The notes beneath the pieces are model-generated. The model saw nothing but the letters and a program-made list of their open reading frames with translations, was not told the DNA's origin and did not search any database. From an uncultured Actinomycetes bacterium (lineage in GTDB: Bacteria; Actinomycetota; Acidimicrobiia; Spongiisociales; DATADW01), in contig CAVTEU010000007.1 of assembly GCA_963733905.1 (NCBI GenBank), positions 277,840-341,839 of the forward strand: 64,000 nucleotides of DNA, in the 5' to 3' direction. How positions within the stretch are numbered: position 1 is the first letter of the stretch; every line of letters begins with the position of its first letter. Shown one piece after another: positions 3,364 to 64,000 of the stretch. The translations under genes and the position numbers were made by a program.

Positions 3364-4673
3364 ATGAGGTTGAATGTGGAGATGCAATCGGACCGCCTCG
3401 ACCAGATGATCGCCGACGAGGAGCAGCGGTTCCTCGAGCGGGCGCCGCTGGCGGTTGCCGCCCATCGGGAGGCATCGGCCCACCTGGCGGGCGGGGTGGC
3501 GTCGAGCCTGCAGGTCACCGAGCCCAGCCCGGTTTGGGCCAGCCACGGGAAGGGGTCGCGGCTGACCGACCTGGACGGCAACGAGTACGTCGACCTCAAC
3601 AATGGGTACGGGGCGCTGGTGGTGGGGCACGCCCACCCAGAAGTGGTCGCCGCCGTTGAGGCACGGCTCAGATCGCGGGTCACACTTCGCTCAGCCCACC
3701 ACCGAGGTGGCGGAGGTCGCCGCCGAGCTATCGGACCGTTTCGGGCTGCCGCTTGTGGCGGTTTGGCAGTTCGGGGACCGAGGCGACCATGGACGCCGTC
3801 CACCTCATGAGGGCGCACACCGGTCGGGACCTCATCGTCAAGGCAGAGGGTGCCTACCACGGCCATCACGACACGGTGAGGGCCGGGCAGGGTGTGCCTG
3901 ATGCGATGCGCGCCCTCACGCTCGAGATGCGGTGGAACCATCCCGACGACGTGGACCGGGTGTTCGCCGAGCACGGTGACCGGATCGCCGGGGTGCTGAT
4001 CGAGCCGGTCGTCACCGCTTGCGGTCTCGTCCCCCCCGAGCCTGGCTACCTCGAGCACATCCGGGACCTGACCAGGAGCCATGGGGCGCTGCTCGCCTTC
4101 GACGAGGTGAAGACCGGGCTCACCGTCGGGCCGGGCGGGGCCACCGGGCTGTACGGCGTCGAGCCCGACCTGGTGTGCCTGGCGAAGTCGCTCGGCGGTG
4201 GGTTGCCGGCGGGAGCCACCGGGGGGACCGAGGAGGTCATGGATCAGATCGTCTCCGGCAGCTACCTGCAACTGGGGACGTTCAACGGCAACCCGCTCTC
4301 CATGGCGGCGAGCCGGGCGGTGCTGCAGGTGCTGGACGACGACGCCTACCAGCATCTCAACCGACTGGGGAAGAGGATCGACGACGGGCTCCGCCAGGCG
4401 GTCGAGAACTGGGACCTGCCGGCGCAGGTTGTCGTCCTCGGGGCGAGGGGATCGATCACCTTCCGAAGCGAACCCGTCCTCGAGTACCGCGACTTCCTCG
4501 AGGTGGACCAGAGGTACCACCGCGCCGCCTGGCTCCACATGTACAACCGGGGGGTGTTCCTCCTCCCTTGGGGCCGCGGGCTGCAATGGCTGCTATCGGT
4601 GCAGCACGACGATGCCGACGCCGATCAGTTCATCGATGCGTTTGCGGGGTTCGCCGCCGCGCTGCGCGGCTGA
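3364..4673 (+). pseudogene. class III PLP aminotransferase (glutamate-1-semialdehyde 2,1-aminomutase-like), 2 frameshifts as assembled
   Basis: GSRLTDLDGNEYVDLNNGYGALVVGHAHPEVV is in frame 1. HFAQPTTEVAEVAAELSDRFGL is in frame 2. SSGTEATMDAVHLMRAHTGRDLIVKAEGAYHGHHD...FDEVKTG...CLAKSLGGGLP is in frame 3. Confidence 0.85.
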
Positions 4674-4676
4674 GCC

Positions 4677-5744
4677 TCACCAGGGGCGCCGTGCCACCAA
4701 TTCTTCGACAGCGTCGAGGGGGAGGGCGTGAGCGGTGTGCCCCAGGTGCCCCGTCATGGTCTCGGCCGCGGTCAGCGCGTTGAGGATGGCCTCCTCGGTG
4801 GCGTCGGCCGCTGCGGCGAACATGACGTCCAACTGACCGTGGGGGAGCATCACCAGGTCGTGCCGGACATTCTCGCCTGCCGGTAGCGAGTTGCCGGTGG
4901 CAAAGGCGAGGAAGAGGTCGCCGCTCCCGTTGTGCCCGTAACCCCCGACCCGGGAGAGACCCACCGTGGCCCGCCTGGCCAGCCGGCGACACTGCACGGG
5001 CAGCAAAGGGGCGTCGGTGGCGAGTACCACGATGATCGAGCCCTGGTCCGGGTAGGCGAGCGGGGTGTGCTCCTCTCCGATCGACCCGACCGAGCGGGAG
5101 ACCGTCGATCCGCAGCGTCTCCCGGTCGCCGTAGTTGGCCTGGACGAGGACCCCGACGGTGAAGGTCCCGGCCGGGGTAGTCCACCACCCGGGATGAGGT
5201 GCCGATCCCGCCCTTGAAGTCGTGGCAGATCATCCCGGTCCCGCCACCGACATTGCCCTCCGCCACCGGCCCCGGGGACGCCGAGTCAAGCGCCGCCCTG
5301 GCGTCCTCCGCCGTGAGCGGGAACGGAACCGGCGTCGCTCAGCCAGCCGTCCCAGGTCTCGGCGACCACCGGCAGGTCGAAGGGATCGGCGTACCCGGCT
5401 TCCACCCCGAAGGCGACGAGCGCATCTCGCACCAGCCCGACCTGATGGGTGTTGGTGATCCCGATGGCCGACCCGAGCATCCCCGACTCCTCGAGCCAGG
5501 GCAGCCCGGTCATCTCTCCGTTGCCGTTGAAGATGTGGTGCCCGGCGAAGGCGTAGTCCTCCCAGATCCGGTTCTCCCGCGGCACCACCATGGTCACCCC
5601 GGTGCGTGCCACCGTGGGCTCGTCACGGATCACCGTGGCGTGTCCCACCCATACTCCGGGGACGTCGGTGATGGCGTTGTTGGCGCCGGTGGGGAGGTCG
5701 CCGATCTCGACGCCCAGCTGGCGGATCCTCGGGCGGCTGCTCAT
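4677..5744 (-). pseudogene. DmpA/S58-family L-aminopeptidase / D-esterase, >=2 frameshifts as assembled
   Basis: The N-terminus is MSSRPRIRQLGVEIGDLPTGANNAITDVPGVWVGHATV. The middle piece is AEGNVGGGTGMICHDFKGGIGTSSRVV. The C-terminus is MVLATDAPLLPVQCRRLARRATVGLSRVGGYGHNGSGDLFLAFATGN. The three pieces are in different frames. The start ATG overlaps the upstream stop as ATGA. Confidence 0.8.
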
Positions 5745-33724: not shown

Positions 33725-34060
33725 ATGGCAATGACCGAACAACTGGTCGTCTATCCCGTCAAAGACCTCGAGAAGGCGAAGGAGCTGTTCACGCAACTCC
33801 TCGGTGCCGATCCATATGTCGATTCGCCCTACTACGTCGGGTACCGCACAGAGGGTCGCGAGATCGGACTCGATCCGAATGGCTCGAGCAATGGTCCGAT
33901 TGCCTACTGGGAAACAGAGGACATCGCTGCCAGAGTCGATGAGCTTCGTTCTGCGGGGTGGCAGGTCACCAGCGACGCGAAGGATGTTGGTGGGGGACTG
34001 CTCGTGGCGCAGTTGGCCGACAGCGATGGAAACACCATCGGGTTGAGGCAGCAGCCCTAA
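33725..34060 (+). CDS. VOC/glyoxalase-family protein (single domain)
   Basis: VYPVKDLEKAKELFTQLLG...GGLLVAQLADSDGNTIGLRQ. The RBS AAGGGAGG lies upstream. Confidence 0.7.
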   Translation: MAMTEQLVVYPVKDLEKAKELFTQLLGADPYVDSPYYVGYRTEGREIGLDPNGSSNGPIAYWETEDIAARVDELRSAGWQVTSDAKDVGGGLLVAQLADSDGNTIGLRQQP

Positions 34061-34106
34061 CCGATGGCAAGCGCGGCCGCGATCATGGGCAACGCAGTCG
34101 CCCGAT

Positions 34107-36461
<2,355 letters not shown>

Positions 36462-36633
36462 GAGGGGCTGAGGGAGGTCTCCTCTGGTTTGCGACTCTGT
36501 GCCTCAAGCGCCCATAATCCACGTTATGTAAAGTCAGAGATGGGACTGCCATTCACAGTGCTCCCCTGACCTTACCCATACCAAACGCAGCGAAGCGAGC
36601 GAGCAGAGCGAGCCTCTCCGTTACTGTCCCCTC

Positions 36634-38574
36634 GTGCGACGTCAGGTGGTAGCGGTCGTCCTCTTTGCCGTTGTGGCTGCGCTGTTGGCGCCAGCCGCCA
36701 ACGCCGCGCCGCAACGCCAGTCTCAGCTGGCTCCGGCGCCGGCTTCGGTTCCGACCAAACCGTGCCCCGACGTCCCCGGGGCGCGCTGCGGGTTCTTAAC
36801 CGTGGCAATGGATCCAGCGGACCCATCGGCCGGGACGATCGACATCGGGTTCGAGATCCATCCGGCGCGCCTGGGCCGAACTCTGGGAACCATCGTCGCC
36901 ATCGAGGGCGGCCCCGGATATGCCACCACCGACAGCCGCGATTGGTACCTCGATCTGTTCGATCCGCTGCTCGACCATCGCGACCTGCTCCTAATCGACA
37001 ACAGGGGCACAGGACGGTCCGAAGCGATCGACTGCCCAGAGCTCCAGTCGTACCAAGGCGACTACGTGGCCAACGTCGGGCTCTGCGGCGCCCAGCTCGG
37101 CGCCACCTCTGACCTGTACGGCACAGCCTTCGCCGTCGACGACATGGCCCGGGTGCTCGACGCCCTCGGCATCGATGCCGTCGACATGTACGGCGACTCC
37201 TATGGCAGCTTCATGGCTCAGGCTTTCGCCGTGCGCCACCCCGATCGAGTGCGCACCTTGGTGCTGGACGGCACCTACCCGGTCGAGGACCAGGACCCCT
37301 GGTACCGCGACCTCAACGCGGCGTTGCGCGACGCGTTCCGGGTCGTTTGCCAGCGTGATCCGGGGTGCGACGCACTGGGTGGTGACCCGGTCGAACGGAT
37401 CGCACGGCTGGCCGATGCCCTGCGTGCCGAGCCGCTCACCGGCACGGCATATGACGCCGACGGGGTACGGCGCCGGGTGACGGTGGACGCCCCGATGCTT
37501 GGCTACCTGACCGGCGTGGCCGCCTATGGGCACGCCGTGTACCGCGAGCTCGACGCCGCAGCCCGCGCCTACCTCCGGGACGACCCGGACCCGGCGCCAC
37601 TGCTCCGCATCGCCGCAGAGCAGATCTACTGGGGCGATGGCGGGCCGGTCGAGGAGTACTCGGAAGGCCTCTACGTGGCGGCGATATGCAACGACTACCC
37701 CCAATTGTGGGACATCGAGTCGCCCATCCCCCAGCGGCCCGCGCAGTACGAGTCTGCTCTCGCCGAACTGAAGGCCACGCAACCGGCCGCCTTTTACCCG
37801 TACACCATTGATGACTGGGTGGCCTCACCCTGGGCGGAGTACACCTCCTGCATCCGGTGGCCGGTTCCGAGCAATCACGTGCCGCCGGTCGAGGCCGCCA
37901 CGCCATACCCCGACGTCCCCACTCTGGTCATCGCGGGTGAGCTCGACTCGCTCACCTCCCCCGCCGGGGCGGAGATCGTTGCCGGGCGGTTCCCCAACTC
38001 GACCTATGTCGAGGTGGCGAATGGTGTCCACATCATGGCGCTGGCTGACTTCTCGCGGTGCGCATCCGACCTGACGGTCCGTTTCGTCAGCACCGGTGGT
38101 GATCCGGGCGACACCTCGTGCGCCGGCCGCTACCAGGAGGTGCGGGTGGTGGAGGAGTTTCCCGAGTCCCTGACCGAGGTGGACCCGGCGCCACAGGGCG
38201 ACCGGGTCAAGTCCCCGGCGGCCGACCGCCGGGTGGTGGCTGCCGCCGCCAACACGGTGGCCGATATCTTCCCCCGCTGGTTCAATGCCGTCGGTTTCGA
38301 CGGTGTCGGGCTTAGGGGAGGCAGCTTCACCTCGCGTGGGTCCGAATTCGTCCAGTTCCGGCTCCACAGGCTCGCCTGGGTGCCGCAGGTGCGGGTGAGC
38401 GGGACCGTCAGCTGGGATCGTATAAGCGGCGCCATCGTCGCCCGGATCCGAGTGCAGGGTCCCGCTCCCGGCCAGCTCGTGCTCCGGTGGAACGACTACC
38501 GGCAGTTGGCCGACCTCAGGGCGACCGGGACGGTCGGCAGCCGTCCCGTCGACCTGGTGATGTCTGCTCCCTGA
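36634..38574 (+). CDS. secreted alpha/beta hydrolase (tripeptidyl aminopeptidase / TAP-like, S33)
   Basis: The signal peptide is VVAVVLFAVVAALLAPAANA. GGPGY, LLLIDNRGTGRS, nucleophile elbow YGDSYGS, and the TAP-like C-terminal part (LVIAGELDSLT, NGVHI) are present. Intact, 646 aa. Confidence 0.8.
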   Translation: MRRQVVAVVLFAVVAALLAPAANAAPQRQSQLAPAPASVPTKPCPDVPGARCGFLTVAMDPADPSAGTIDIGFEIHPARLGRTLGTIVAIEGGPGYATTDSRDWYLDLFDPLLDHRDLLLIDNRGTGRSEAIDCPELQSYQGDYVANVGLCGAQLGATSDLYGTAFAVDDMARVLDALGIDAVDMYGDSYGSFMAQAFAVRHPDRVRTLVLDGTYPVEDQDPWYRDLNAALRDAFRVVCQRDPGCDALGGDPVERIARLADALRAEPLTGTAYDADGVRRRVTVDAPMLGYLTGVAAYGHAVYRELDAAARAYLRDDPDPAPLLRIAAEQIYWGDGGPVEEYSEGLYVAAICNDYPQLWDIESPIPQRPAQYESALAELKATQPAAFYPYTIDDWVASPWAEYTSCIRWPVPSNHVPPVEAATPYPDVPTLVIAGELDSLTSPAGAEIVAGRFPNSTYVEVANGVHIMALADFSRCASDLTVRFVSTGGDPGDTSCAGRYQEVRVVEEFPESLTEVDPAPQGDRVKSPAADRRVVAAAANTVADIFPRWFNAVGFDGVGLRGGSFTSRGSEFVQFRLHRLAWVPQVRVSGTVSWDRISGAIVARIRVQGPAPGQLVLRWNDYRQLADLRATGTVGSRPVDLVMSAP

Positions 38575-38577
38575 CCT

Positions 38578-39385
38578 TCAGCGCCGAACCAGCCGGGCGA
38601 CCGCCAGACGAGCCGACCACCAACGCCGCGCCCATGGCGCCAAGCAACCAGATCGGGACCGCGGTGCCCGCCGCTCCCCCGGTGCCGGTTGGGATGCCCT
38701 CGGGCGGGGTCTGCAGCCCGGCGACCTGCTGGACGGCGACGTCAAAGCTGCCGCCCTCGACCGACCCGATGCCATAGATGAGGAATGCCGACCCCTCGGA
38801 GAGATCGACCTCGGTCTGGAAAAGGTCTCCTCCGCCCTCGGCCGAAGGGACCAGGGAAAGCGTGATCGCGCCCGCCTCCACCTCGGCGGTCGCCTCATCC
38901 CCATTGGCCACCTCGAGCGCCACCGGCTCGCCGTTGACCAGGAGATCGACGGCAGGCGCCTGTGCCTGGTGCCTGAGGACGACCCGCGCCTCGCCGGCCC
39001 CAACCGGGTCGGCGTTGTTGACGTAGACGGCGAGCGTCGGGTCCCCCGAGTTGGTCAGACCCGCCACCACGGTGGCGTCCGCTCCGTCAGCGAGATCCAT
39101 TTCGGCGGCCAGAGCCGGCTCCTCGGTTTCGGGGTCGGCGCCCTCGGGGTAGATGGCAACGTCGTGGGGGCCGGATGCCACCGTGGTCGCCTCGGTGACG
39201 GTGCCAAAAGTCATCTCCTCGACCACGAGTTCGCCGTCGAGGTAGATGTCCGCCGGGAACCCACCCTCGCCCGGAATGGCATGGATGATGGTCAGCTTGC
39301 TCTCGGCCTGGGCGGCGAGCGCCGCACCGGCTCCCAGAGCGGTGATCACGACGGCGAGAATCCCCACGGTTGCCAGTCTTTTCAT
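38578..39385 (-). pseudogene. DUF4397-like secreted protein with C-terminal anchor; 1 frameshift in the last ~15 codons
   Basis: The signal peptide is MKRLATVGILAVVITALGAGAALA. The body is repeated beta-rich units (LTIIHAIPG..ADIYLDGELV; VVLRHQAQAPAVDLLVNGEPV). The tail is GIPTGTGGAAG plus a hydrophobic stretch, and ends in LVRR in another frame. Confidence 0.65.
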
Positions 39386-39402
39386 CGATCCCATCCTTTC
39401 GT

Positions 39403-40067
39403 TCATTGCCCCGAAACGACGAGGCTCGTGATCGAGCCATCGGCGTCGTATTCGAGCCCTTCCGCCAGCACATCGATGACCGTGAAGGACACCCAGGCGC
39501 CTTCGATGCCTTCCAACCGGAACTCGGCGCGCCCATCTGACTCCGGATGGCTCCGAGACCGCTACCGGAATCGTCCCCGACCAGACTGCGGTGACGGTGG
39601 CGCCGGGCACAGGCTTGCCGCCCGGTCCGGCTACCACCACCGTCACCGCCGCATCCCACTCCCCGTCCCCGGGGATCGGATTGCCCTCGAGCGTGACCGT
39701 CACCCCCGATGCCACCACGGTCGTGGTGACTCCGTCGGTCGTGCTCACCAAGCCGCTTGTGGGAGTTGCCGTCGTCGTCGGTTGGGTCGCCGATGTCGTC
39801 GGTGGGGCCGCCGATGTGGCGGTTCGCGCTGCCGCGATCTGAGGTTCGGCCTCGGGTCGTGGAAGTCGCCTCCGGCGCCGGTTGCGACGGTGCGGTCGGA
39901 CGGCGAGCGGTTCCCGGTGTCGACCCGATCACCGTCTCAACCCTCGGCATCTCGCCGGTCACAACCACCTCTCCCAAGACGATTCCCGTCACCGCCGCGG
40001 CCAGTCCGGCGACCACGAGCAACAGCGCCTCCCCGGAGCGTCTCGCTACCTTCCTGGCACGCATCAA
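39403..40067 (-). pseudogene. membrane-anchored protein with Thr/Pro-rich linker and Ig-like beta domain, several frameshifts
   Basis: MMRARKVARRSGEALLLVVAGLAAAVTGIVLG is a TM anchor. GVTVTLEGNPIPGDGEWDAAVTVVVAGPGGKPVPGATVTAVWSG follows. EFRLEGIEGAWVSFTVIDVLAEGLEYDADGSITSLVVSGQ-stop is in different frames. Confidence 0.4.
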
Positions 40068-40192
40068 CTACCCCGCAGACGAATGGCTCCACCACATGAG
40101 CGGCCCTCTCAATTGCCCTCCCGCGCCGCTTGTCCACCATGGTTCGGAGCGAAGGCTCGCCCGGTTTGGTGGGATCTGCCACGATCCGGGCG

Positions 40193-40643
40193 ATGGCGCG
40201 CCACTACCGGGCACCCGGTTGGTTCACCACCCGGGTCTTCAATCCGCTGGTGTCTTGGTTCACCTACCGAGGCGTGAGCTTCATGGGATCGCGCGTCCTG
40301 GCTGTGCAGGGGCCGGAGCAGCGGCGAATGGCGCACCAACCCGGTCAACCTCCTCGAGTACCAGGGTCGGCGCTACCTGGTGTCGCCCAGGGGCGAGGGG
40401 CAATGGGTGCGGAACCTTCGCGTGGCCGGCGGTGGCGAGTTGCGGCTCGGCTCAAAGGCGGAGCCCTTCAGCGCCGCAGAGATCGCCGATGACGCCAAGG
40501 TCCCGATACTGCGCGCCTACCTGGAACGGTGGAAGATCGAGGTCGGCGCCTTCTTCGAAGGAGTGGGACCCGATTCCAGCGACGACGAGATCGGCGCCAT
40601 CGCCCACCGCCACCCGGTTTTCGAGGTGCTGCCGGCTGCTTGA
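40193..40643 (+). pseudogene. deazaflavin (F420)-dependent nitroreductase/quinone reductase family (Ddn-like), 1 frameshift near 40305
   Basis: MARHYRAPGWFTTRVFNPLVSWF...GSRVLAVQG is in one frame. RSSGEWRTNPVNLLEYQGRRYLVSPRGEGQWVRNLRVAGGGEL...ILRAYLERW is in a second frame. Confidence 0.75.
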
Positions 40644-40653
40644 GCGACAGCGG

Positions 40654-41004
40654 CTATTCCCCGGCGGTCGTCTCCTCCAACAGCCCGGCGCGTTGCAAGA
40701 CCTCGTCGGGAACGCCGACGAGCTGCCACGCCTCGGGGCTTATCCCCTTTCGGCGCGAGTAGTCGAGCGCCACCGCGACGAAATCGGCCTCGAGGCTCCG
40801 GTCGCGGGCCACCACACGATCGCGCGCCGCCCACATCGCCTCCTCGACAGATTCCCGTTCCTCGATCAACGATGCCCGCTCCGCCTCGTCGCGGGAATCC
40901 GAGATGAGGCGTCGCAGCGAGGCGAGGCGGTAGGCCATGGCGGCCCGCTCCGGGTCGAGCACCTCGGCGCGCTCCAGCCGCTCCAGATACCGGCGCACCG
41001 CCAT
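40654..41004 (-). CDS. hypothetical helical protein (116 aa)
   Basis: Intact ORF with coding-like composition. No family was recognised. Confidence 0.4.
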   Translation of the reverse strand: MAVRRYLERLERAEVLDPERAAMAYRLASLRRLISDSRDEAERASLIEERESVEEAMWAARDRVVARDRSLEADFVAVALDYSRRKGISPEAWQLVGVPDEVLQRAGLLEETTAGE

Positions 41005-41167
41005 GGCGTCCCGGCGGCTGACCCTGGATCCGGGCGCCGTCGCCGGTGTACGAAGCGGTCTTCGGTCACAGTGCCGACCGTATCACCCCAAACCACCCGG
41101 CAGGGAGAATCGATGGTCGCCATCGCCCGGGTTGCGCGGTGCGGGCCATCGTCGGCACACTCCCCCG

Positions 41168-42619
41168 GTGACTCCCTTCCTCGCCGGTCTCCTGGTCTTT
41201 GGCACATCGGCCGTGGTGCTGGTCATGGAGATTCTCGCCGGCCGGCTGCTCGCCCCATACGTGGGGGTCACCCTCGAGACGTTCACCGCGATCATCGGCA
41301 CCGTTCTCGCCGGGATCGCCCTCGGGACGTGGCTGGGCGGGCGACTCTCCGACCGGGTCGAGCCTCGGCGGCTGCTCGGGCCCGAACTGGCGCTTGGTGG
41401 CGTGGCGGCGGCGCTGGCAGCGCCGATGGCCCGGCTCCTCGGCCCGACAGCGGTCAGCGCCAACCCACCGACGCTGGTGCTTCTGGTGCTGGTGACCGTG
41501 TTCGTCCCCGCCGCCCTCCTCAGTGCGGTTCCACCTACGGTGGTCAAGGCGGTGCTCGCCGACCTGGACCAGACAGGGAGCGTCGTGGGCCGGTACTCGG
41601 CGCTGGGAACCGCCGGGGCCATCGCCGGCACGTTTCTCACCGGGTTCGTCCTGGTCCCGCTGTTCCCCACCCCGCAGATACTGATGGGGCTGGCGGTCTT
41701 GCTCGTTGTCAGCGGGCTGGCGCTGTGGTGGTGGCTGGCCCCCACCCGGTCTGCCTTTCTGATCATCCCGGCACTCCTCGCCGGTGTCTGGCTGGGAGGC
41801 GCCCTGGCCGACCCATGCGAGACCGAGACCTCCTATTACTGCCTGCGGGTCGAGCAGGATGTCGACAACCCGTCGGGCCGGACCTTGTGGCTCGACACCC
41901 TGCGACACGCCTACGTCGACCTCGATGACCCCACCGAACTCCGGTTCACCTATACCCGGATGCTGGCGGCGGTGGCCGACGCCACCAGCGAGGGACCGAT
42001 CGACGTGCTCCACATCGGTGGTGGTGGGTTCACCATGCCGCGCTGGTTGGAAGCGACCAGACCAGGGTCCAGCGGGGTGGTGCTCGAGCTCGACCCCGAG
42101 ATCGTCGCTGTCGCCGAGGAGCGACTGGGATGGGAGCCGTCCCCGGAGGTCGACGTGCTCGTCGGCGACGCCAGGCTCGGCATCAGGCGGGTGGGTCAAT
42201 CGAGCGCCGATCTTGCGATCGGAGATGCCTTTGGCGGCGTCGCGGTCCCCTGGCACCTCACCACCGGCGAGTTCGTCGGTCAGGTCGCCGCGGTCCTCCG
42301 GCCCAATGGCGTCTACGCGGCGAACATCATCGACGGTTCGGAGATGGCCTTCCTCCGCGCCGAGGCCGCCACCTTCGCAACTGTCTTCGAGCACGTGGCG
42401 GTGTTGTCACTCCCCGAGCGATTCGGCAGTGGGGGCAATTTCCTGGTGGTGGGGAGCGATGAACCCATCCCGGCCGACGAGATCATCGCCGCCGGCTCCC
42501 TTCACGACCTCGATCTGAGGGTGCTGACCGGCGACGAGCTCGTCGACTTCATCGCCGATGCGGAGGTCCTGACCGACGGCCACGCACCGGTCGACCAGTT
42601 GCTCACTCCGGGGAGATGA
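41168..42619 (+). CDS. fused membrane domain / spermidine synthase-like methyltransferase-fold protein
   Basis: About 7 TM segments (FGTSAVVLVMEILAGRLLAPYVG...). They are followed by VLHIGGGGFTMPRWL...VVLELDPEIV...VGDAR...DLAIGDAF...NGVYAANI. A GTG start near 41168 was chosen within the longer ORF. Confidence 0.7.
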   Translation: MTPFLAGLLVFGTSAVVLVMEILAGRLLAPYVGVTLETFTAIIGTVLAGIALGTWLGGRLSDRVEPRRLLGPELALGGVAAALAAPMARLLGPTAVSANPPTLVLLVLVTVFVPAALLSAVPPTVVKAVLADLDQTGSVVGRYSALGTAGAIAGTFLTGFVLVPLFPTPQILMGLAVLLVVSGLALWWWLAPTRSAFLIIPALLAGVWLGGALADPCETETSYYCLRVEQDVDNPSGRTLWLDTLRHAYVDLDDPTELRFTYTRMLAAVADATSEGPIDVLHIGGGGFTMPRWLEATRPGSSGVVLELDPEIVAVAEERLGWEPSPEVDVLVGDARLGIRRVGQSSADLAIGDAFGGVAVPWHLTTGEFVGQVAAVLRPNGVYAANIIDGSEMAFLRAEAATFATVFEHVAVLSLPERFGSGGNFLVVGSDEPIPADEIIAAGSLHDLDLRVLTGDELVDFIADAEVLTDGHAPVDQLLTPGR

Positions 42620-57284: not shown

Positions 57285-57372
57285 GCCGACGATGTCGAAG
57301 CCGATGAAGACCGACTGAGCGGCGGCGCCCTCTCCCCGCCTTAAGCTTGTGCTGCAACGGGAGAGTGGGTGA

Positions 57373-59600
57373 ATGACAGTCGACGTGACCGGCGAATCTT
57401 CTCGCGACCTGCGTCTCACAGACGCGTTGGAATCGGCAGCCCCTGGGGTTGTCGTCGTGCTCGCACAATCCCCGATCGGCGCCGCCGGCCCCGTGGCGGA
57501 GGCCATCGGACAGGCGGGGTCTGACCGGTTTCAGGAGGACCGCCGGCCGTGAGCCCGCCAGATCGCGGCCCGGGGCCATCGCCGTCGAGTTGGGCATCGA
57601 TGCCTCGTCGCTAGCCGCCGGTGGGAGGCCGCAGGCGGTTCTTCTCGAGGAGGCACAGTGGGCCGACCCGACCTCGCTCGGGTTGCTCCGCCATCTCATC
57701 ACCCGCCCCGACGGTGTCCGGCTGATGGTCATCGCCCACCGCCCACCGGACGAACTCGACCGTTGGTGGCTCGAATCCATTGCGGCAGCCGCCAGGGACC
57801 ACGGCGTCCTGATCGAGACGACCGGTGCCGAAGATGCTCCCGACCGCTCCCTCGAGCAGCTCGATGAGGCCGGCCGAGAACTGGTGACTGCCGCCTCGAT
57901 GGCCGGGGAGCCCATCACCGTGGAGGAGGCCGCCACCATCCTCTCGCTTGGTGAGACCGAGGCGCTCGGCGTTGCCGAGGCCGCCTCCTCCGCAGGCTGG
58001 CTCCTCGAGCTGCGGGGCGGGTTCATCTACTCCCCCTCGGCCGGGCCCCTGACCATCGGAGAGAGCAGACGGGGTCACGAGGCGGCCCGTCTCGCCTCGG
58101 TGTTGGAGGCCGCCGGCGGTGACGCCGGGGTCATCGGCTACCACCACCTCGACGCAGGCCACCCCGAGGTCCCGCCTTTTCTCGGCTGGCCGCCGCCGCC
58201 ATCGAAGCCGACCAGCATCGGGCGGTCAGGTGAGGCGTATCACCTCGCCGAGACCGCTCTCGGGGCTCAACCGGGGGCCGCCGTGTCCGACCCGGAGACG
58301 GCGGGGCGGTTGCACCTCATCTGCGGTCGTTTCCTCCACTGGGCCGGGTTATCGGAGCGGGCTGCCGAACACCTCGTCGCCGCCACCCGGCTGCTCACAG
58401 GGGTGGAGCGGATCGACGCCCTCGGCTTCGAGACGGCGGTTGCCGGCGATCGGCAGATGCCTCAGGAGGCCGAGCGGATATCCGCCATCGCATGTTGGGA
58501 GGCGAGCCGCCAGGGCGAGACCGCCAAGCTCGGTTCGCTCTACGACCCTGCGCGCCCACCAGGTGGACCGGATCGGTTTCTCCGCCGAGGCCGAGATCAT
58601 GCTCGACCGCGCCGACGTCCTCCTCGAGCAGGCGGCCACACCGGTACAGCGGTACTACGCCGCCGTCAACCGCGGCTGGATCGCCCTCGACCATGGGGAA
58701 TTCGCCCATGCGGAACGCGAGTTCGCCCGTCTCCGTGACGAGGCGATGGCGAGCGAGCCGGAGGCATCGCAGGCGGACAAGGAGGCTTGCTGGGGACGGG
58801 CGCTGTTGGCGACAGGGCAGGTGGACGAAGGTCTCGCCGCCCTGGACCGCGCCGAGGAGCTCGCCGGGAGCGCCAATGTCGAGGCACCGGTCTTCCTCGC
58901 CGAGATCGCCAGGGCCGAGGCGGTCGATCGCCATCGGGGCGCTACGAGGATGGCCTGACGGCTGCGAACCGGGTCCTCGATCTCGTCGAGCGCAGGCTGC
59001 CTGCCTGGGAAAACGTTGCACGGGCCCTCCGCGCCCAATCCCTCATCGGCTTGGGCCGGGTCGAGGAGGCCTCTACCGAGATCGCCGCCGCCTCGCCGCC
59101 TGCCCGCCCGGCGCCGACGGGTGTCGCTGGCGTGCCCGTTGCCGCGCCCTCCAGTTGGAGATCCAGACCTCGTTGGGGAGCCCATGGCCGGCGCAGGAGG
59201 CAGCCGACCTCGCCGACCAGATGCTCCACTCCAAGCTCTATCACTGGGCCATCGACCTGATGTGTGCCCGCGCCATCCACGAGAAGGACGACGAGATCGC
59301 CGCCGCCGCGCTCGGTCTGGCAGTCGAGACCGGCAACCCGATGGGTGCAGCCCGGGCGGCAACCGCAGGGCGTCTTGTGGGGCAAGCCCGCCGCCGCCCC
59401 CGCCGTCCGCTCGGTACAGCGCATGGCGGCATCGGTGCCCGCAGAGTGGCGTCCTCAGTGGGAGGCGCTCCCCGAGGTCGAACCCGCCTTGTCCGCTCCC
59501 CCACCGGACGACGACGCCGTGGCGGCTGCCGACCACGATGAGGCACTGGACCGGATCCTGGCCGCATCGGGCCTGGCGGGTGTCGAAACCGTGCTCAGCC
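57373..59600 (+). pseudogene. large ATPase-like/TPR regulator remnant (LAL/STAND-like N-terminus with degenerate Walker A), >=5 frameshifts
   Basis: VVVVLAQSPIGAAG sits where GEPGIGKS is expected. AVLLEEAQWADPTSLGLLRHLI is a Walker-B/HWAD-like block. It is followed by TPR-like helical repeats spread over all three frames. The 3' end is very approximate. Confidence 0.45.
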
Positions 59601-59639
59601 CGGCCCAGAGGCGAGCCAGGGGGTTGGTCGGTCCCCGTC

Positions 59640-60934
59640 GGCACGGTCCGCAGGCGCTGGCCCATGGTTGTCGCCGCCGCACGTGGGTGTGGTCGTGGTG
59701 GCAGGTGCCGCCTCGCTGGCGGTTGATCAGTCTCACCGATCCGGGTCCCACGACCACAGTGCCCCGCTCCAACCACCACCGTTCCCCTGGCTCTCGAGGA
59801 GACGGTCCTTCCCGAAGTGACGGAACGGGACTTCTTCACCGGGACCGCGTGAGCACAGGGCGGGGAACGACCGTACCGGCGCCTTCGATGCGGAGCCGGT
59901 CAGCTCCGCCCAGGGCCATTACTGGGTGCGTCCCACGCAGCAACCGATTGACGCGGCGCCGGTGGCATACGGGAGCATGCTCCTCGTCGCCGGCAACGAC
60001 AGCACCCTCTACGGTCTCCACCAGGAGACCGGCGGCGTCATCTGGAGGCTGTTGGCGGATGGGCCGATACACACAGCCCCCGCCATCGGGACCATCGAGA
60101 CCGCCGATGCCGCGTCCCCTGCCATCGTCGTGGTGGCCGGCGACGACGGGATCGTGCGCGCCCGCGAGGCGCTGCCCGACAGGGTCACCGAGCGCTGGGC
60201 GGTCCAACTCGGCGAGCGGATCCGCTCGTCGCCCGCAGTGGCCGACGGCGTCGTCTACGCGGCGACCAGCGAAGGCTCGGTGCACGCTCTCGATCTTGGG
60301 ACCGGATCCGAGCTGTGGCGGTTCCCCAGACGAGGGACCGTGGGGCCGGTCAGCGCCGATCTCGACCCTCCACGATGGCGTGCTCTACGTAACGACAAGC
60401 GATTCGACCGGCAATGTCATCCTGATCGACACCGCCACCGGCGAGGAGATATGCCGCCGGGAGACCGACGCACCCATCGAGGTCAACCCGATCGTCTCCG
60501 ATGAGGTGGTCTACGTCTCCAACACGGGCAGTCAGGTGTACATGTTCCCCGCCGGTGTCTGCAACGGCCTGGTCGCCGGCGACCCCCATCACTCCTGCGG
60601 GAGAGACCGGTCATCGTCTGCTCCGGCGATCCGCGACAACGTGATGTACATCGGCGAGGGCACGTTCCTCTATGCGATCGATCTCGCCACCAACACGGGG
60701 ATCTGGGAAGAGGTGGTGCAGGCCGGAGAGCAGTTTGGCTCGGTGACGGTGGCGGGCGATGTCGTCTACGCCGGCTCGGACGACGGGAATCTGTACGCGG
60801 TCGATGCCGACACCGGTGAGACCTTGTGGACGTGGCAAACGGGAGGTCCGGTCCGGGCGGCTACCGCCGTCATCGACCACATCGTCTATGCGGTGAGCCT
60901 CGACGGGATGGTCTACGCCATCGGAGGCGAATGA
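59640..60934 (+). pseudogene. PQQ-like (BamB/YxaL-type) beta-propeller repeat protein, several frameshifts
   Basis: Repeated blades are seen: GSMLLVAGNDSTLYGLHQETGGVIW, DGVVYAATSEGSVHALDLGTGSELW, DGVLYVTTSDSTGNVILIDTATGEE, GDVVYAGSDDGNLYAVDADTGETLW, IVYAVSLDGMVYAIGGE-stop. The 5' end is approximate. Confidence 0.65.
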
Positions 60935-60949
60935 GTAGTCGCCGCCCCG

Positions 60950-61000
60950 CCAACCCTGGGTTGGGGAGTACCCGGTGGGTAGCTGCCAACCCAGGGTTGG
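60950..61000. repeat. 51-bp inverted-repeat unit (left copy) containing two 15-bp perfect palindromes CCAACCC(T/A)GGGTTGG
   Basis: CCAACCCTGGGTTGG-GGAGTACCCGGTGGGTAGCTG-CCAACCCAGGGTTGG. Its reverse complement matches 63099-63149 at 48/51 positions. Confidence 0.9.
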
Positions 61001-61157
61001 AGCGCATTGGGGCGGGTGCCGGACCCGGAAGGGGCCGGGAAGTGGGGAGTCGACACATGTGTGGCCCCGGCCGGGTCCGATCGGGGCGACGGCGCCGTTG
61101 GTGCGGGCGGCGCCGTCGCCTGCTCGACCGGTTCATGCCCCGACGGGGCCTCGCATG

Positions 61158-61560
61158 TCAGCGGTACTCGATCCCGGGGAGGAGTCGCCCGGGAAGCCGG
61201 CCCGGTGCGGATCACGGTGCCCGTCCACCAGCATCCTCCCGTCGGCGAGATCGCTCCGAGCTCCACCGGTCCGCCGCATCGAGCGGCCAGGCGACGCCCT
61301 CCGGATCTACCGAAGGGCTGATGTTCCGGCGGCGACGTCTCCGGGGTGGTCGCCACAGTGGCGGTGCGCAGCATCATCGGTGCCGCCAGCAGCACGAGAC
61401 AAAGACGGCAGCCATCGGCGAGATCACCCGGAGCTGCCAGCGGGGCGGCTGTCTGCCGGGCAGCGGCGAGTGGCCGGCGGTCTCGACGACCGCCGTCCTC
61501 AGCATCGCCTCGATCTCGTTCCTGATACCGGGGCGTGGACGGCACTCTGGGGTGGTTTGA
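61158..61560 (-). pseudogene. putative anti-sigma / single-pass membrane protein downstream of the ECF sigma gene, multiple frameshifts
   Basis: IRNEIEAMLRTAVVETAGH, the TM-like AAVFVS..LVLLAAPMML, and the short extracytoplasmic tail ...MLVDGHRDPHRAGFPGDSSPGIEYR-stop were pieced from 3 frames. A GCCCC-GTC-GGGGC hairpin follows the stop. This is a weak call. Confidence 0.3.
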
Positions 61561-62161
61561 GCTCAGGCAAGCTCGGCCTCCATCGGCCCAGTCCGAGCGG
61601 TGGATGACCGCTGCCGATCATGGAGCGCATCCGCCTCCGTGCCCTGCTGAGCCGGAGCCGAGCGGCATTGGCGCTCACCTCGAGCGCCAGAGCCGCCTCT
61701 TGCGGGCTGAGACCATGCAGCGCAACCAACTCGAGGACGTCCCGCTCACCACACGGAGAGCAGTTCGAGGGCGGCCTCGATCTCGGGTCGTTGACGGGCG
61801 GCATCGATCGCCGCCACGACGTCGTCTTCCTCGGCCGAGTCGAAGTGCGGCATCGACCCTCCGACCCGCGATCGCAGCCTGTCCATCGGTGGTCGCGCCG
61901 CATCTGGCCCATCCACAGTCTTCTGGTGATCCCGAGCAGCCAGGGCAGAGCCGTGGGAAGCTCCTCGCGGTAACGGGGCGCCGCCTCGAGTGCAACCAGG
62001 AAGGTGTCGCCGACGAGGTCGGCCGCTTCGTGCGCATTGCGCACCCGGCGGAGGGCGAACCCCGTCACCGCGCCGACATGACGACGGAAGAGCGTGGCGT
62101 ATGCGTCGGCATCGCCACGCACCGTCGCCGCAAGCAGTTCCCCATCGGAGGGACCGGTCAT
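61499..62161 (-). pseudogene. ECF (group 4) sigma-70 family RNA polymerase sigma factor, internal frameshifts
   Basis: Region 2 is GDADAYATLFRRHVGAVTGFALRRV...AADLVGDTFLVALE. Region 4 is ERDVLELVALHGLSPQEAALALEVSANAARLRLSRARRRM. The linker (FDSAEEDDVVAAIDAARQRPEIEAALELL) is in another frame. The real stop is uncertain. Confidence 0.8.
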
Positions 62162-62186
62162 TCCACGTCTCCGCTTCCCAACCAGG

Positions 62187-63038
62187 TCATGTCACCACCG
62201 AGCCCCGCATGTCGCCGGCATCAGCACGGTCGAGGTACTCGGCCGATGCCTGGTACGCCAGTTGGAAACGACGTTCGGCCAGACCTGGGTCTATTTGCCG
62301 CAAGCGCTGCCCCGGGGGGTCGCACCGCCCCGGTCGGGCAGGACATGCGCCACCACGCCGGGCGGGCAGCGACGCCATGTCTGCCGAAGAAGCGGTGCCG
62401 GCGCGCCACCTCGAGCGCCACCTGCGCCACCTCCCAAGGCAGACGCGGGCACGGTGAGCTTCCGCTCGATCCGCCCCACCTGGAGCACGTAGATGGTGGT
62501 CGCCCCCAGGTCGAAAGCTCGGCGCACCGGGATGCTGTTGACGATCCCACCGTCGATGTAGTGCTCGCCGCCGATCTCGACCGGTGGGAACAGGCCAGGC
62601 ACCGACGAAGAGGCGAGTATCGGCTCGACCAGAGACCCGCTGCTGAACCACTGCTCGGCGGAACGCTCGATCGACGCCGCCACGCACTGGAACTCGACCA
62701 CCAGGTCCTCGAAACGCTCCGGCAACCACTCAGACGAGCATGGCTCGCAACGGGCTTATCGAGTAGAGGTGGGTCCGGGAACGAAAGGCGTTGAGGGCAG
62801 TGGCGAAAAGCCCGCCACCGAACATCTCCTGCTCGTCGAGGCTCAACCACACCGATCGAAGCCTGGCCACCCCTTCCAGGGTCGGGTCGGCGGCGATGCC
62901 AGCGCCATTGATCGCCCCTATGGAGGTCCCTACGACCAGGTCGGCGGCGATCCCGTGCTCGATGAGCGCCTGGAGCATCCCCACCTCGTAGGCGCCGAGC
63001 GGTCCGCCGCCACCGAGGACGAACGCGGTGCGACCCAT
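62187..63038 (-). pseudogene. patatin-like phospholipase, >=3 frameshifts
   Basis: The oxyanion motif is VLGGGGPLGAYEVG. The nucleophile motif is GTSIGAING. The catalytic Asp is in YIDGGIVNSIP. A 1-nt insertion creates TGA between LRAMLV and EWLPERFEDL. The C-terminal third is split over 3 frames. Confidence 0.8.
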
Positions 63039-63063
63039 CGCCGGAGGATACGGCAGGCACGCC

Positions 63064-63180
63064 CCAACCCAGGGTTGGTGGCAACATCACCTGTGACACC
63101 AACCCAGGGTTGGCAGCTACCTACCAGGTACTCCCCAACCCAGGGTTGGCAGAACGTCAGGTACTCCCGACCCAGGTTGG
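63064..63180. repeat. array of four palindrome units (three perfect CCAACCCAGGGTTGG plus one degenerate) in the patatin/kinase divergent promoter region; includes the right 51-bp inverted-repeat copy (63099-63149)
   Basis: Perfect copies are at 63064-63078, 63099-63113 and 63135-63149. A degenerate copy, CCGACCCAGGTTGG, is at 63167-63180. The last two lie in direct ~33-nt repeats CAGGTACTCCC(C/-)... ending at the ATG at 63186. Confidence 0.9.
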
Positions 63181-63185
63181 GAGAC

Positions 63186-63640
63186 ATGGACGACCTCAGG
63201 ATCCCGGTGCCGTCGCTGGTCATCCTCGCCGGCCCGTCGGGAGCCGGGAAGTCGGCGTGGGCGGAGGAATGGTTCCGCCCCGACCAGGTGGTGTCATCTG
63301 ATCGGTTGCGGAGCCTCGTCGGTGAGGGCGAGCACGACCAGGCAGCCGGAGAGGCCGCCTTCGACCTCCTCGAACGGGTGCTCGACCATCGGATGGCGAG
63401 GAGGCTGCTCACCGTCGTGGACACCCTGGGGATGAACGCCGAGCGGCGGTCTGCCTGGCGGGAGCGGGCCAGGGCTGCGGGTATGCCGGCGTTTGTGGTG
63501 GCATTCGACACCCCGCCGGCGGTGTGCCGCACCCGCAACAGGAGCCGGCCCGACCCCGTCCCCGACCGGGTGCTCGGATCCCAGCTGCGCCGCTGGCCAG
63601 GAGAGCGCGAGAGGATCGACGCGGAGATCATGGGACGGTG
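63186..63640 (+). CDS. AAA_33 / polynucleotide-kinase-like P-loop kinase domain (probably the N-terminal part of a kinase-LLM fusion)
   Basis: Walker A is LVILAGPSGAGKS. SSDRLRSLVGE...TVVDTLGM...FVVAFDTPPAVCRTRN follows. The frame changes near 63625 with no stop in the joined frames. Confidence 0.65.
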
Positions 63641-63726
63641 TACTCACTCCTGGCCCGGTCCGACTCGTGCTCCCTGGGTTCGGGACATCCGACGAGGCGG
63701 CGCGCCGTCAATCGGAGGACCCCAAG

Positions 63727-64000
63727 CCGCTTCGGTTCGGCCTGCAGATCTCGCGCTTTGCATGGGAGGGCGGCGCGGCCACGACTCGCCGACCACCTCG
63801 CCGCGGCGGCGGTCACCGCCGAGCAGGCCGGGTTCGAGGGTCTGTGGGTCATGGACCACCTCCTGCAAATCCCCCAGGTGGGGAGGGTGTGGGAGGATCT
63901 GCCCGAGAGCACCACGACGCTCGGTTTCCTGGCGGGGATCACCACGGGCATCGGGTTGGGAACGCTGGTCACCCCGGTGACCTTCCGGGCACCCGGGCTC
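63727..64000 (+). pseudogene. LLM-class flavin/F420-dependent oxidoreductase domain (partial, runs off the window; 1 frameshift near 63780)
   Basis: PLRFGLQISRF..., then LADHLAAAAVTAEQAGFEGLWVMDHLLQIPQVG...LGFLAGITTGIGLGTLVTPVTFRAPG is the typical LLM N-terminal pattern. Confidence 0.6.

Follow-up and report, generated by a model that had tools for sequence, protein, structure and literature searches.

Inverted 51-bp repeats around a patatin/sigma-factor operon in an uncultured Acidimicrobiia bacterium probably belong to a low-copy, dispersed family of intergenic palindromes

Repeat elements and genes at the locus

This report concerns two inverted 51-bp repeats in a 64,000-nt stretch of contig CAVTEU010000007.1 from an uncultured Acidimicrobiia bacterium of the DATADW01 lineage—hereafter the window, by which we mean the whole 64-kb stretch that was analysed—where they bracket a module of three genes encoding a patatin-like phospholipase, an extracytoplasmic function (ECF) sigma factor, and a small third protein. 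We consider it probable, at roughly 0.7, that both 51-mers belong to a dispersed family of palindromic intergenic elements, present in few copies and specific to a clade of uncultured Acidimicrobiia, that resembles the repetitive extragenic palindromes (REPs) and bacterial interspersed mosaic elements (BIMEs) of other bacteria. A sequence-only reading of the window had described the 51-mers accurately: 60950-61000 and 63099-63149 are reverse complements of each other at 48/51 positions (94% identical), and in each a 21-nt spacer separates two 15-bp palindromes (CCAACCCWGGGTTGG). The three mismatches fall on the central base of one palindrome and on two bases of the 5-nt spacer core. The same reading had reported no other copy of the palindrome in the remaining ~62 kb. 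At the right-hand site, it had overlooked a perfect palindrome at 63064-63078 and a degenerate one at 63167-63181. The elements are listed below, with P standing for the palindrome.

60950-61000, minus strand: left doublet, palindromes at 60950-60964 and 60986-61000 with a 21-nt spacer
63064-63181, plus strand: right array, three perfect palindromes and one degenerate, with a period of 35-36 bp
63099-63149, plus strand: central doublet of the right array, that is, the second 51-mer, P-CAGCTACC-TACCA-GGTACTCC-P

Read on the minus strand, which is its family orientation, the left doublet is P-CAGCTACC-CACCG-GGTACTCC-P. The two window doublets are thus in opposite family orientation, with nhmmer scoring the left one at 65 bits on the minus strand vs 32 bits on the plus strand, and the central doublet of the right array at 68 bits on the plus strand. 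The left doublet lies 15 nt 3' of the stop codon of a plus-strand gene, between convergent genes. The right array—with its perfect palindromes at 63064-63078, 63099-63113, and 63135-63149 and a fourth, at 63167-63181, carrying three mismatches—takes up nearly all of a 147-nt spacer between two divergent genes, limited by the ATG of the patatin gene (63038, minus strand) and the ATG of the next gene (63186, plus strand). The 15-mer is exceptional in its surroundings, being the sole repeated palindrome and the sole 14-mer occurring five times in 64 kb; with up to three mismatches it gives 12 strand-matches in the window, whereas shuffled sequences average 2.4 and never exceed 7. No diverged copies beyond the two sites were detected by profile search of the 64-kb window, and Rfam models, run over 58-64 kb with a permissive threshold, returned only a chance match to a miRNA family (E = 0.42, far under the gathering score). 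The genes around the repeats are as follows.

57337-60934, plus strand: large gene with a C-terminal pyrroloquinoline quinone (PQQ)/BamB-like beta-propeller, 1199 aa in its ortholog at locus L002, stop codon preceding the left doublet
61161-61568, minus strand: small gene 3' of the sigma factor gene, putative anti-sigma factor, no family match, frameshifted
61565-62161, minus strand: ECF sigma factor gene, Sigma70_r2 and r4_2 domains (Pfam/NCBIfam)
62190-63038, minus strand: patatin-like phospholipase gene (Pfam/NCBIfam), at least three frame changes in the window
63186-64000, plus strand: AAA_33 kinase-like domain fused to a TIGR03560-type F420-dependent luciferase-like monooxygenase (LLM) oxidoreductase, running off the window

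The labels given to the module genes by the sequence-only reading hold for patatin and the ECF sigma factor, which are recognised by both Pfam and NCBIfam. They do not extend to the anti-sigma factor, a protein of ~136 aa with one hydrophobic segment whose start overlaps the sigma stop codon. It matches no family, and 'anti-sigma' is therefore a guess from position only.

Dispersal, conservation, and predicted folding of the repeat family

The 51-mers are not peculiar to this operon. In a GTDB scan (one genome per species) for two exact palindromes 15-30 nt apart, doublets were found at 22 loci, a figure that undercounts copies because matching was exact. All but one of these loci are in six Acidimicrobiia metagenome-assembled genomes (MAGs), and hundreds of kb separate the sites on large contigs. 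The sequence-only reading had proposed hundreds of dispersed copies as the mark of an ordinary REP family; this family is dispersed, yet amounts to 1-6 doublet loci per genome. A metagenome scan added two doublet loci, orthologs of L001 and L012, viral contigs scanned for the doublet gave no matches, and neither the 64-kb window nor ~240 kb of loci contained further copies. Full-text searches with the 15-mer and its 11-mer core retrieved unrelated eukaryotic primers only.

The unit of the family is ~36 bp long. It consists of the 15-bp palindrome—perfect, with a 7-1-7 form and a free central W (A or T)—flanked by GGTACTCC and CAGCTACC, together with a free 5-nt linker, and the palindrome sits inside an imperfect palindrome of 31-36 bp. 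Most doublets have a spacing of exactly 36 bp, and the spacer is conserved as CAGCTACC-N5-GGTACTCC, in which TACC and GGTA are complementary and N5 is free, and the outer flanks often extend the pattern (...TACTCC-P...P-CAGCTAC...). Since the CTCC...CAGC flanks recur in the same orientation, the units are arranged head to tail, either as doublets with a 51-bp core or as arrays of 3-4. The element is oriented, its profile scoring ~65 bits on one strand vs ~32 on the other. In the more distant CAZMSN01 / Ga0315543 lineage, the palindrome and the 36-bp period are kept and the spacer is different.

Other repeats were seen in the company of the palindrome. At the CAZMSN01 / Ga0315543 loci (L001 7319-7449, L012 5816-6115, L023, and L024), a second palindromic motif (GAACCGTGGGCTG / CAGCCCACAGTTC) stands alongside, hinting at composite repeat clusters. 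On two contigs of the same MAG, DATADW01, a (CGGCAGA)n heptamer tandem repeat adjoins the doublet (L015 6474-6513 and L022 3656-3695). At a Saccharibacteria contig end (L005 1-118), an AT-rich 41-bp tandem repeat contains the identical 15-bp palindrome in an unrelated phylum; this 15-mer is likely to be there by coincidence and to have been multiplied by tandem duplication.

Each of the ~17 independent sites falls in intergenic DNA, with ~5 between convergent, 9 between tandem, and 2 between divergent genes. Many begin 3-19 nt after a stop codon or end 5-50 nt before the next start codon, and the element is co-directional with transcription at ~5 and opposed to it at ~5. At 15 or more unrelated loci the element occurs alone. 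Its neighbours—argG/argH, rplM/HAD hydrolase, DUF1385/prfA, SURF1, ABC ATPase/permease, CopCD, glyoxalase/methyltransferase, Rrf2/DUF1269, and others—are housekeeping genes unrelated to one another. An all-versus-all comparison of the locus proteins revealed neither a recurring neighbour gene family nor a regulator across non-orthologous sites, and no transposase gene adjoins any site. The three-unit array between the DUF1385 gene and prfA (L004 4751-4838) leaves the reading frame open in the assembled sequence, without a stop codon; because the palindrome holds no stop codon in any frame, automated gene callers may fuse the genes on either side of it.

At the module itself, the locus is shared by six relatives (L002, L013, L017, L025, L026, and L027), whose patatin genes are ~95% (L025 and L013) or ~82-85% (L002, L017, L026, and L027) identical to that in the window. 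The two repeat sites compare as follows.

Window: left doublet present; right array of 3+1 units
L002: left doublet present; right array of 4 units plus an extra half spacer
L013: left doublet precisely absent (54 bp), flanks intact; right array of 3+1 units
L025: left doublet absent; right array two units (72 bp) shorter
L027: left doublet present; right array absent, with a 48-nt spacer instead
L017: left side not covered; right array present
L026: left side not covered; right array present

The right array persists in L002, L013, L017, and L026 with changes in the number of units. Around these variable sites the gene order is fixed. The module is collinear with its flanks in 6/6 relatives and inverted in none, with the PQQ-domain gene on the left and the AAA_33-LLM, RNase HII, and DUF179 genes on the right in every one of them. 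The repeats bracket the module in L002 as they do in the window, the clusters being 2.1 kb apart in both, and L027 keeps both divergent genes around its array-less 48-nt spacer. L025 is without the equivalent of window positions 60933-62153, a stretch that holds nearly the whole sigma factor gene together with the anti-sigma-like gene and the left doublet, and its patatin gene abuts the PQQ-domain gene. Outside the module, L008 has a doublet upstream of SURF1, whereas the syntenic region of the window has none. The elements are gained, lost, expanded, and contracted independently of the neighbouring genes, and neither module site is needed for the persistence of these genes. When placed on the patatin tree, both sites look ancestral and the later losses look independent. 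As to how L025—the closest relative—came by its 1.2-kb deletion (junction at L025 5007-5030), an octamer, GTCGCCGC, is found near both breakpoints in the window (~60937 and ~62123), which suggests a microhomology-mediated event.

The doublets are predicted to fold stably. As single-stranded DNA they reach -18 to -24 kcal/mol (z -4.1 to -4.7), with the left doublet at -24 kcal/mol (z = -4.7), and as RNA a doublet reaches -58 kcal/mol (z -5.7), in one long predicted hairpin that is possible despite the head-to-tail units because the palindrome is self-complementary. No U-tract terminator was found at the repeats in a consensus scan of 60.7-63.4 kb. Across the central doublet in five lineages, 1/28 columns vary in the palindrome arms and 3/5 in the loop, whereas 27% of columns vary in the adjacent patatin gene (binomial p ~0.002 for arms vs patatin). 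A hairpin alone would tolerate compensatory change, and here it is the sequence itself that is conserved; we infer that a protein recognising the palindrome sequence-specifically exists.

Several observations concern the genes rather than the repeats. Frame changes affect all five genes, that is, the three module genes and both neighbours, with three in the PQQ-domain gene and one in the AAA_33-LLM gene, where the frame shifts near 63551-63668 (the protein has 495 aa in L013, encoded at 3515-5002). The ECF sigma gene, whose central portion is frameshifted in the window, is intact in L013, just as the patatin gene is intact in L017, L025, L026, and L027. Since gene calls are fragmented over the entire 64-kb window and the orthologs in relatives are intact, we read the frameshifts as a matter of assembly quality and not as decay of the module: they look like indel errors of a long-read assembly of low consensus quality, not pseudogenes. 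Fusions of an AAA_33 (polynucleotide-kinase-like) domain to a TIGR03560-type LLM are widespread in Acidimicrobiia, with thousands of homologs at E below 1e-30, and the gene adjoins patatin in the close clade only; the distant homologs (~56-59% identity) have neither patatin synteny nor palindromes and are uninformative about the origin of the array. With regard to promoters, the consensus scan of 60.7-63.4 kb yielded no sigma-70-like candidate, and the wrong spacings seen on inspection ruled out an ECF-type promoter (GGAAC...GTT) within the unit. A conserved GGAGGATAC separates the patatin ATG from the array and is present in all relatives, array-less L027 included. In the window (63045-63050) it reads TATCCT on the minus strand, 6 nt upstream of the patatin ATG, and could be the -10 element of a leaderless patatin transcript.

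A probable REP/BIME-like family and its alternatives

The reading that we favour, a low-copy family of REP/BIME-like elements, takes the bracketing of the patatin/sigma/anti-sigma genes to be two separate ancient placements, in the spacers on either side of the operon. When transcribed or single-stranded, a doublet would form a very stable hairpin, and such a hairpin may act as a bidirectional 3'-end structure, either a transcription terminator or an mRNA stabiliser. REPs are known to terminate transcription or stabilise mRNA, and terminators of high-GC Actinomycetota are often without U-tracts. The left copy would then serve as a 3'-end structure between the convergent PQQ-domain gene and patatin/sigma operon. 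The recogniser of the palindrome might be a DNA-binding protein of the host, or else a transposase of the REP-associated tyrosine transposase (RAYT) type by which the family is spread or maintained.

A number of points weigh against this reading. There are few sites per genome, compared with tens to hundreds for classical REPs, and the units are head to tail, an arrangement that is rare among REP dimers (PMC3733652). None of the sites is adjoined by a RAYT or other transposase gene, and a search with E. coli RayT against a six-frame translation of 306 kb of sequence gave no homolog, a weak negative because it was obtained with a single query. There is no clear recent gain, parsimony at the module locus favouring ancient presence followed by losses, and orthologous copies that stay perfect over ~20% DNA divergence fit a functional binding site better than a selfish repeat. 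Most pairs are invariant, which leaves too little covariation to prove a hairpin: three pairs change on both sides, which is equalled in 17/500 shuffles. Moreover, the central W of the paired palindromes shows no covariation and is unpaired in 17/25 sequences, which fits double-stranded protein sites as well as hairpins. Finally, two of ~6 sites lie within 2.1 kb of each other, for which a rough estimate gives a probability of ~0.02 if sites were randomly placed. Their proximity to the operon may therefore not be pure accident, and a local functional link, with termination at one end and an occupied divergent control region at the other, is conceivable.

A bolder version of the argument, which we put forward tentatively and at well under even odds, is that the palindrome and its rigid 36-bp period are recognition sites of a sequence-specific protein of this clade, such as a domesticated Y1/RAYT-type enzyme or an architectural/insulator protein. 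If true, it would explain both the letter-perfect sites across ~20% DNA divergence and the two clusters bracketing the sigma-factor operon. A Y1/RAYT-type enzyme would represent the first partnership in Actinomycetota akin to that of RAYTs with REPINs, hairpin-forming REP doublets, and an architectural or insulator protein would mean that the sites mark operon boundaries. The very low copy number, fixed head-to-tail period, and near-absolute conservation offer a tractable handle on the recognising protein, and the family allows a role as terminator or mRNA stabiliser to be tested in high-GC Actinomycetota.

Among the explanations that compete with a REP/BIME-like family, the one that survives best, albeit as an unlikely one, holds that the palindromes are operator or architectural sites of a dimeric protein, bound cooperatively at 36-bp spacing, which co-regulates or insulates the operon, e.g., by looping. 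Perfect 7-1-7 palindromes with a free central W are what such a protein would bind, even the CAZMSN01 lineage holds strictly to their spacing in spite of its different spacer sequence, and strong purifying constraint on the arms and low copy number point the same way, as do the two clusters 2.1 kb apart in the window and in L002 and the position of the largest array in a divergent promoter region, where it is kept in five lineages. Yet the neighbouring genes are functionally unrelated, no regulator gene recurs beside the sites, at least five independent sites immediately follow stop codons between convergent genes, and several are inside apparent operons (argG-argH and ABC ATPase-permease). 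L027 keeps the divergent genes without the array and L013 keeps the operon without the left site. The intergenic, post-stop, convergent or tandem distribution is the one published for REPs and not that of a regulon operator. The sequence-only reading had offered a REP/BIME-like element or operator sites as a single option; the former is the best description we can give, and the latter is unlikely given the unrelated neighbours and an array that is dispensable in L027.

We give little credence to the idea that the palindromes are chromosome-organisation sites (matS-, parS-, or Ter-like) bound by a structural or fork-arrest protein. Low copy number, strongly conserved palindromes, and an oriented element would suit such sites, and a GC-skew and gene-strand switch near 36-42 kb could mark a terminus, but the sites extend across at least 500 kb of one contig and occur on several contigs without evident clustering, all are intergenic, and the arrays vary in unit number. 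The palindrome is not known to resemble parS or dif sequences. The switch itself lies within ~34000-42000 of the window, where GC skew turns from positive to negative near 36 kb and genes go from mostly plus to mostly minus; it could correspond to a replication terminus, and near it we found no match to an actinobacterial dif consensus.

The sequence-only reading had also raised the possibility that the repeats are recombination sites of an invertible or excisable segment or the ends of a mobile cassette, and the comparison with relatives disfavours mobility and inversion alike: L013 is without the left copy and L027 without the right array, and both keep the genes. Since sites vary independently among relatives and the module is collinear in all, we reject both ideas. 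That a site-specific recombinase encoded elsewhere flips or excises the 2.1-kb patatin/sigma/anti-sigma segment is highly improbable, even if the 51-mers are inverted and 94% identical and if dyad-symmetric arms around a variable 5-nt core superficially recall the core site of a recombinase. The flanks contain no recombinase, 6/6 relatives are collinear, the same element stands singly at many loci, and L013, L027, and L025 each miss one or other site with gene orientation unchanged. In addition, the 5-nt cores differ (CACCG vs TACCA), and differing cores would block crossover by most tyrosine or serine recombinases. Least credible of all is that the 51-mers are terminal inverted repeats of a non-autonomous mobile cassette carrying patatin, ECF sigma, and anti-sigma genes, since the exact enclosure of these genes in the window and L002 is opposed by the lack of a target-site duplication outside the repeats, the same flanking synteny in every relative, ends that vary independently of the cargo (L025 has lost sigma/anti-sigma and yet keeps patatin), a right 'end' that is a four-unit array shared with the upstream region of the neighbouring gene, and family members at 15 or more unrelated loci that are solitary and flank nothing. 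For annotation, the repeats should not be taken as the borders of a mobile or phase-variable patatin/ECF-sigma cassette.

Comparison with known repeat systems

Among known systems, invertons share with the present locus the inverted repeats that bracket a promoter-proximal segment. They differ in that here there is no recombinase in the flanks, there are no orientation variants, the cores are non-identical, and the repeats belong to a dispersed family. A second possible resemblance is to the mycobacterial interspersed repetitive units (MIRU/VNTR), which are likewise actinobacterial and consist of tandem units, tens of bp long and present at no more than a few dozen loci, in intergenic or sometimes intra-operonic positions. 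Their unit number varies between relatives, as does that of the right array (two to four or more units). MIRUs are nevertheless 40-100 bp long, have no perfect palindrome as their basis, and are oriented with transcription.

REPINs consist of two inverted REPs and form large populations with one cognate RAYT (Bertels & Rainey 2011, PMC3116915; PMC3337134). The Acidimicrobiia family resembles them in that the doublet and not the single palindrome is the prevalent conserved form, and in that it is apparently vertically inherited, with long persistence within one clade. The differences are the direct orientation of the units, as defined by their asymmetric flanks, and the tiny populations.

The closest class is that of the REPs and BIMEs, in particular the GTAG REPs, of E. 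coli, Pseudomonas, and Stenotrophomonas. REPs are short stem-loops, often in dimers or clusters, mostly located between unidirectional and convergent open reading frames, downstream of coding regions (PMC3733652). Our family, too, is built of short palindromic units, within the 20-40 bp of a REP unit, that can form stem-loops; they lie exclusively outside genes and are mostly post-coding, between convergent or unidirectional genes. They are found in dimers or clusters with structured spacers, the dimers can fold as one large hairpin, and orthologous sites differ by presence or absence. A GTAG motif (GGTAGCTG) also lies beside the palindrome in one orientation in most copies, the unit in that orientation being GTAG-CTG-palindrome-GGAG-TAC. 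In the present family, however, a gap of 3 nt separates GTAG from the stem, and its GTA can pair with the TAC opposite; it is hardly the clean, unpaired terminal tag (GTAG or CGTC) of those REPs. The family further departs from REPs in its few sites per genome, which fall short of the tens to hundreds expected of a high-copy element, in its rigid 36-bp head-to-tail units instead of the usual head-head or tail-tail dimers, and in having no RAYT in view beside its sites, whereas a cognate RAYT gene, encoding a Y1 HUH transposase, is usually flanked by its repeats. The host is different as well: the survey of Di Nocera et al. (2013, PMC3733652) reports GTAG REPs in Proteobacteria, Cyanobacteria, Chloroflexi, and the Planctomycetes-Verrucomicrobia-Chlamydiae group, but not in Actinobacteria, whereas the present family is from Actinomycetota (Acidimicrobiia). 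It is REP-like in its working, a low-copy variant that we do not file as a RAYT-associated REP, in a phylum where such elements have barely been described, and it is set apart by its very low copy number, its fixed 36-bp head-to-tail period, and the near-absolute conservation of a 15-bp palindrome across species.

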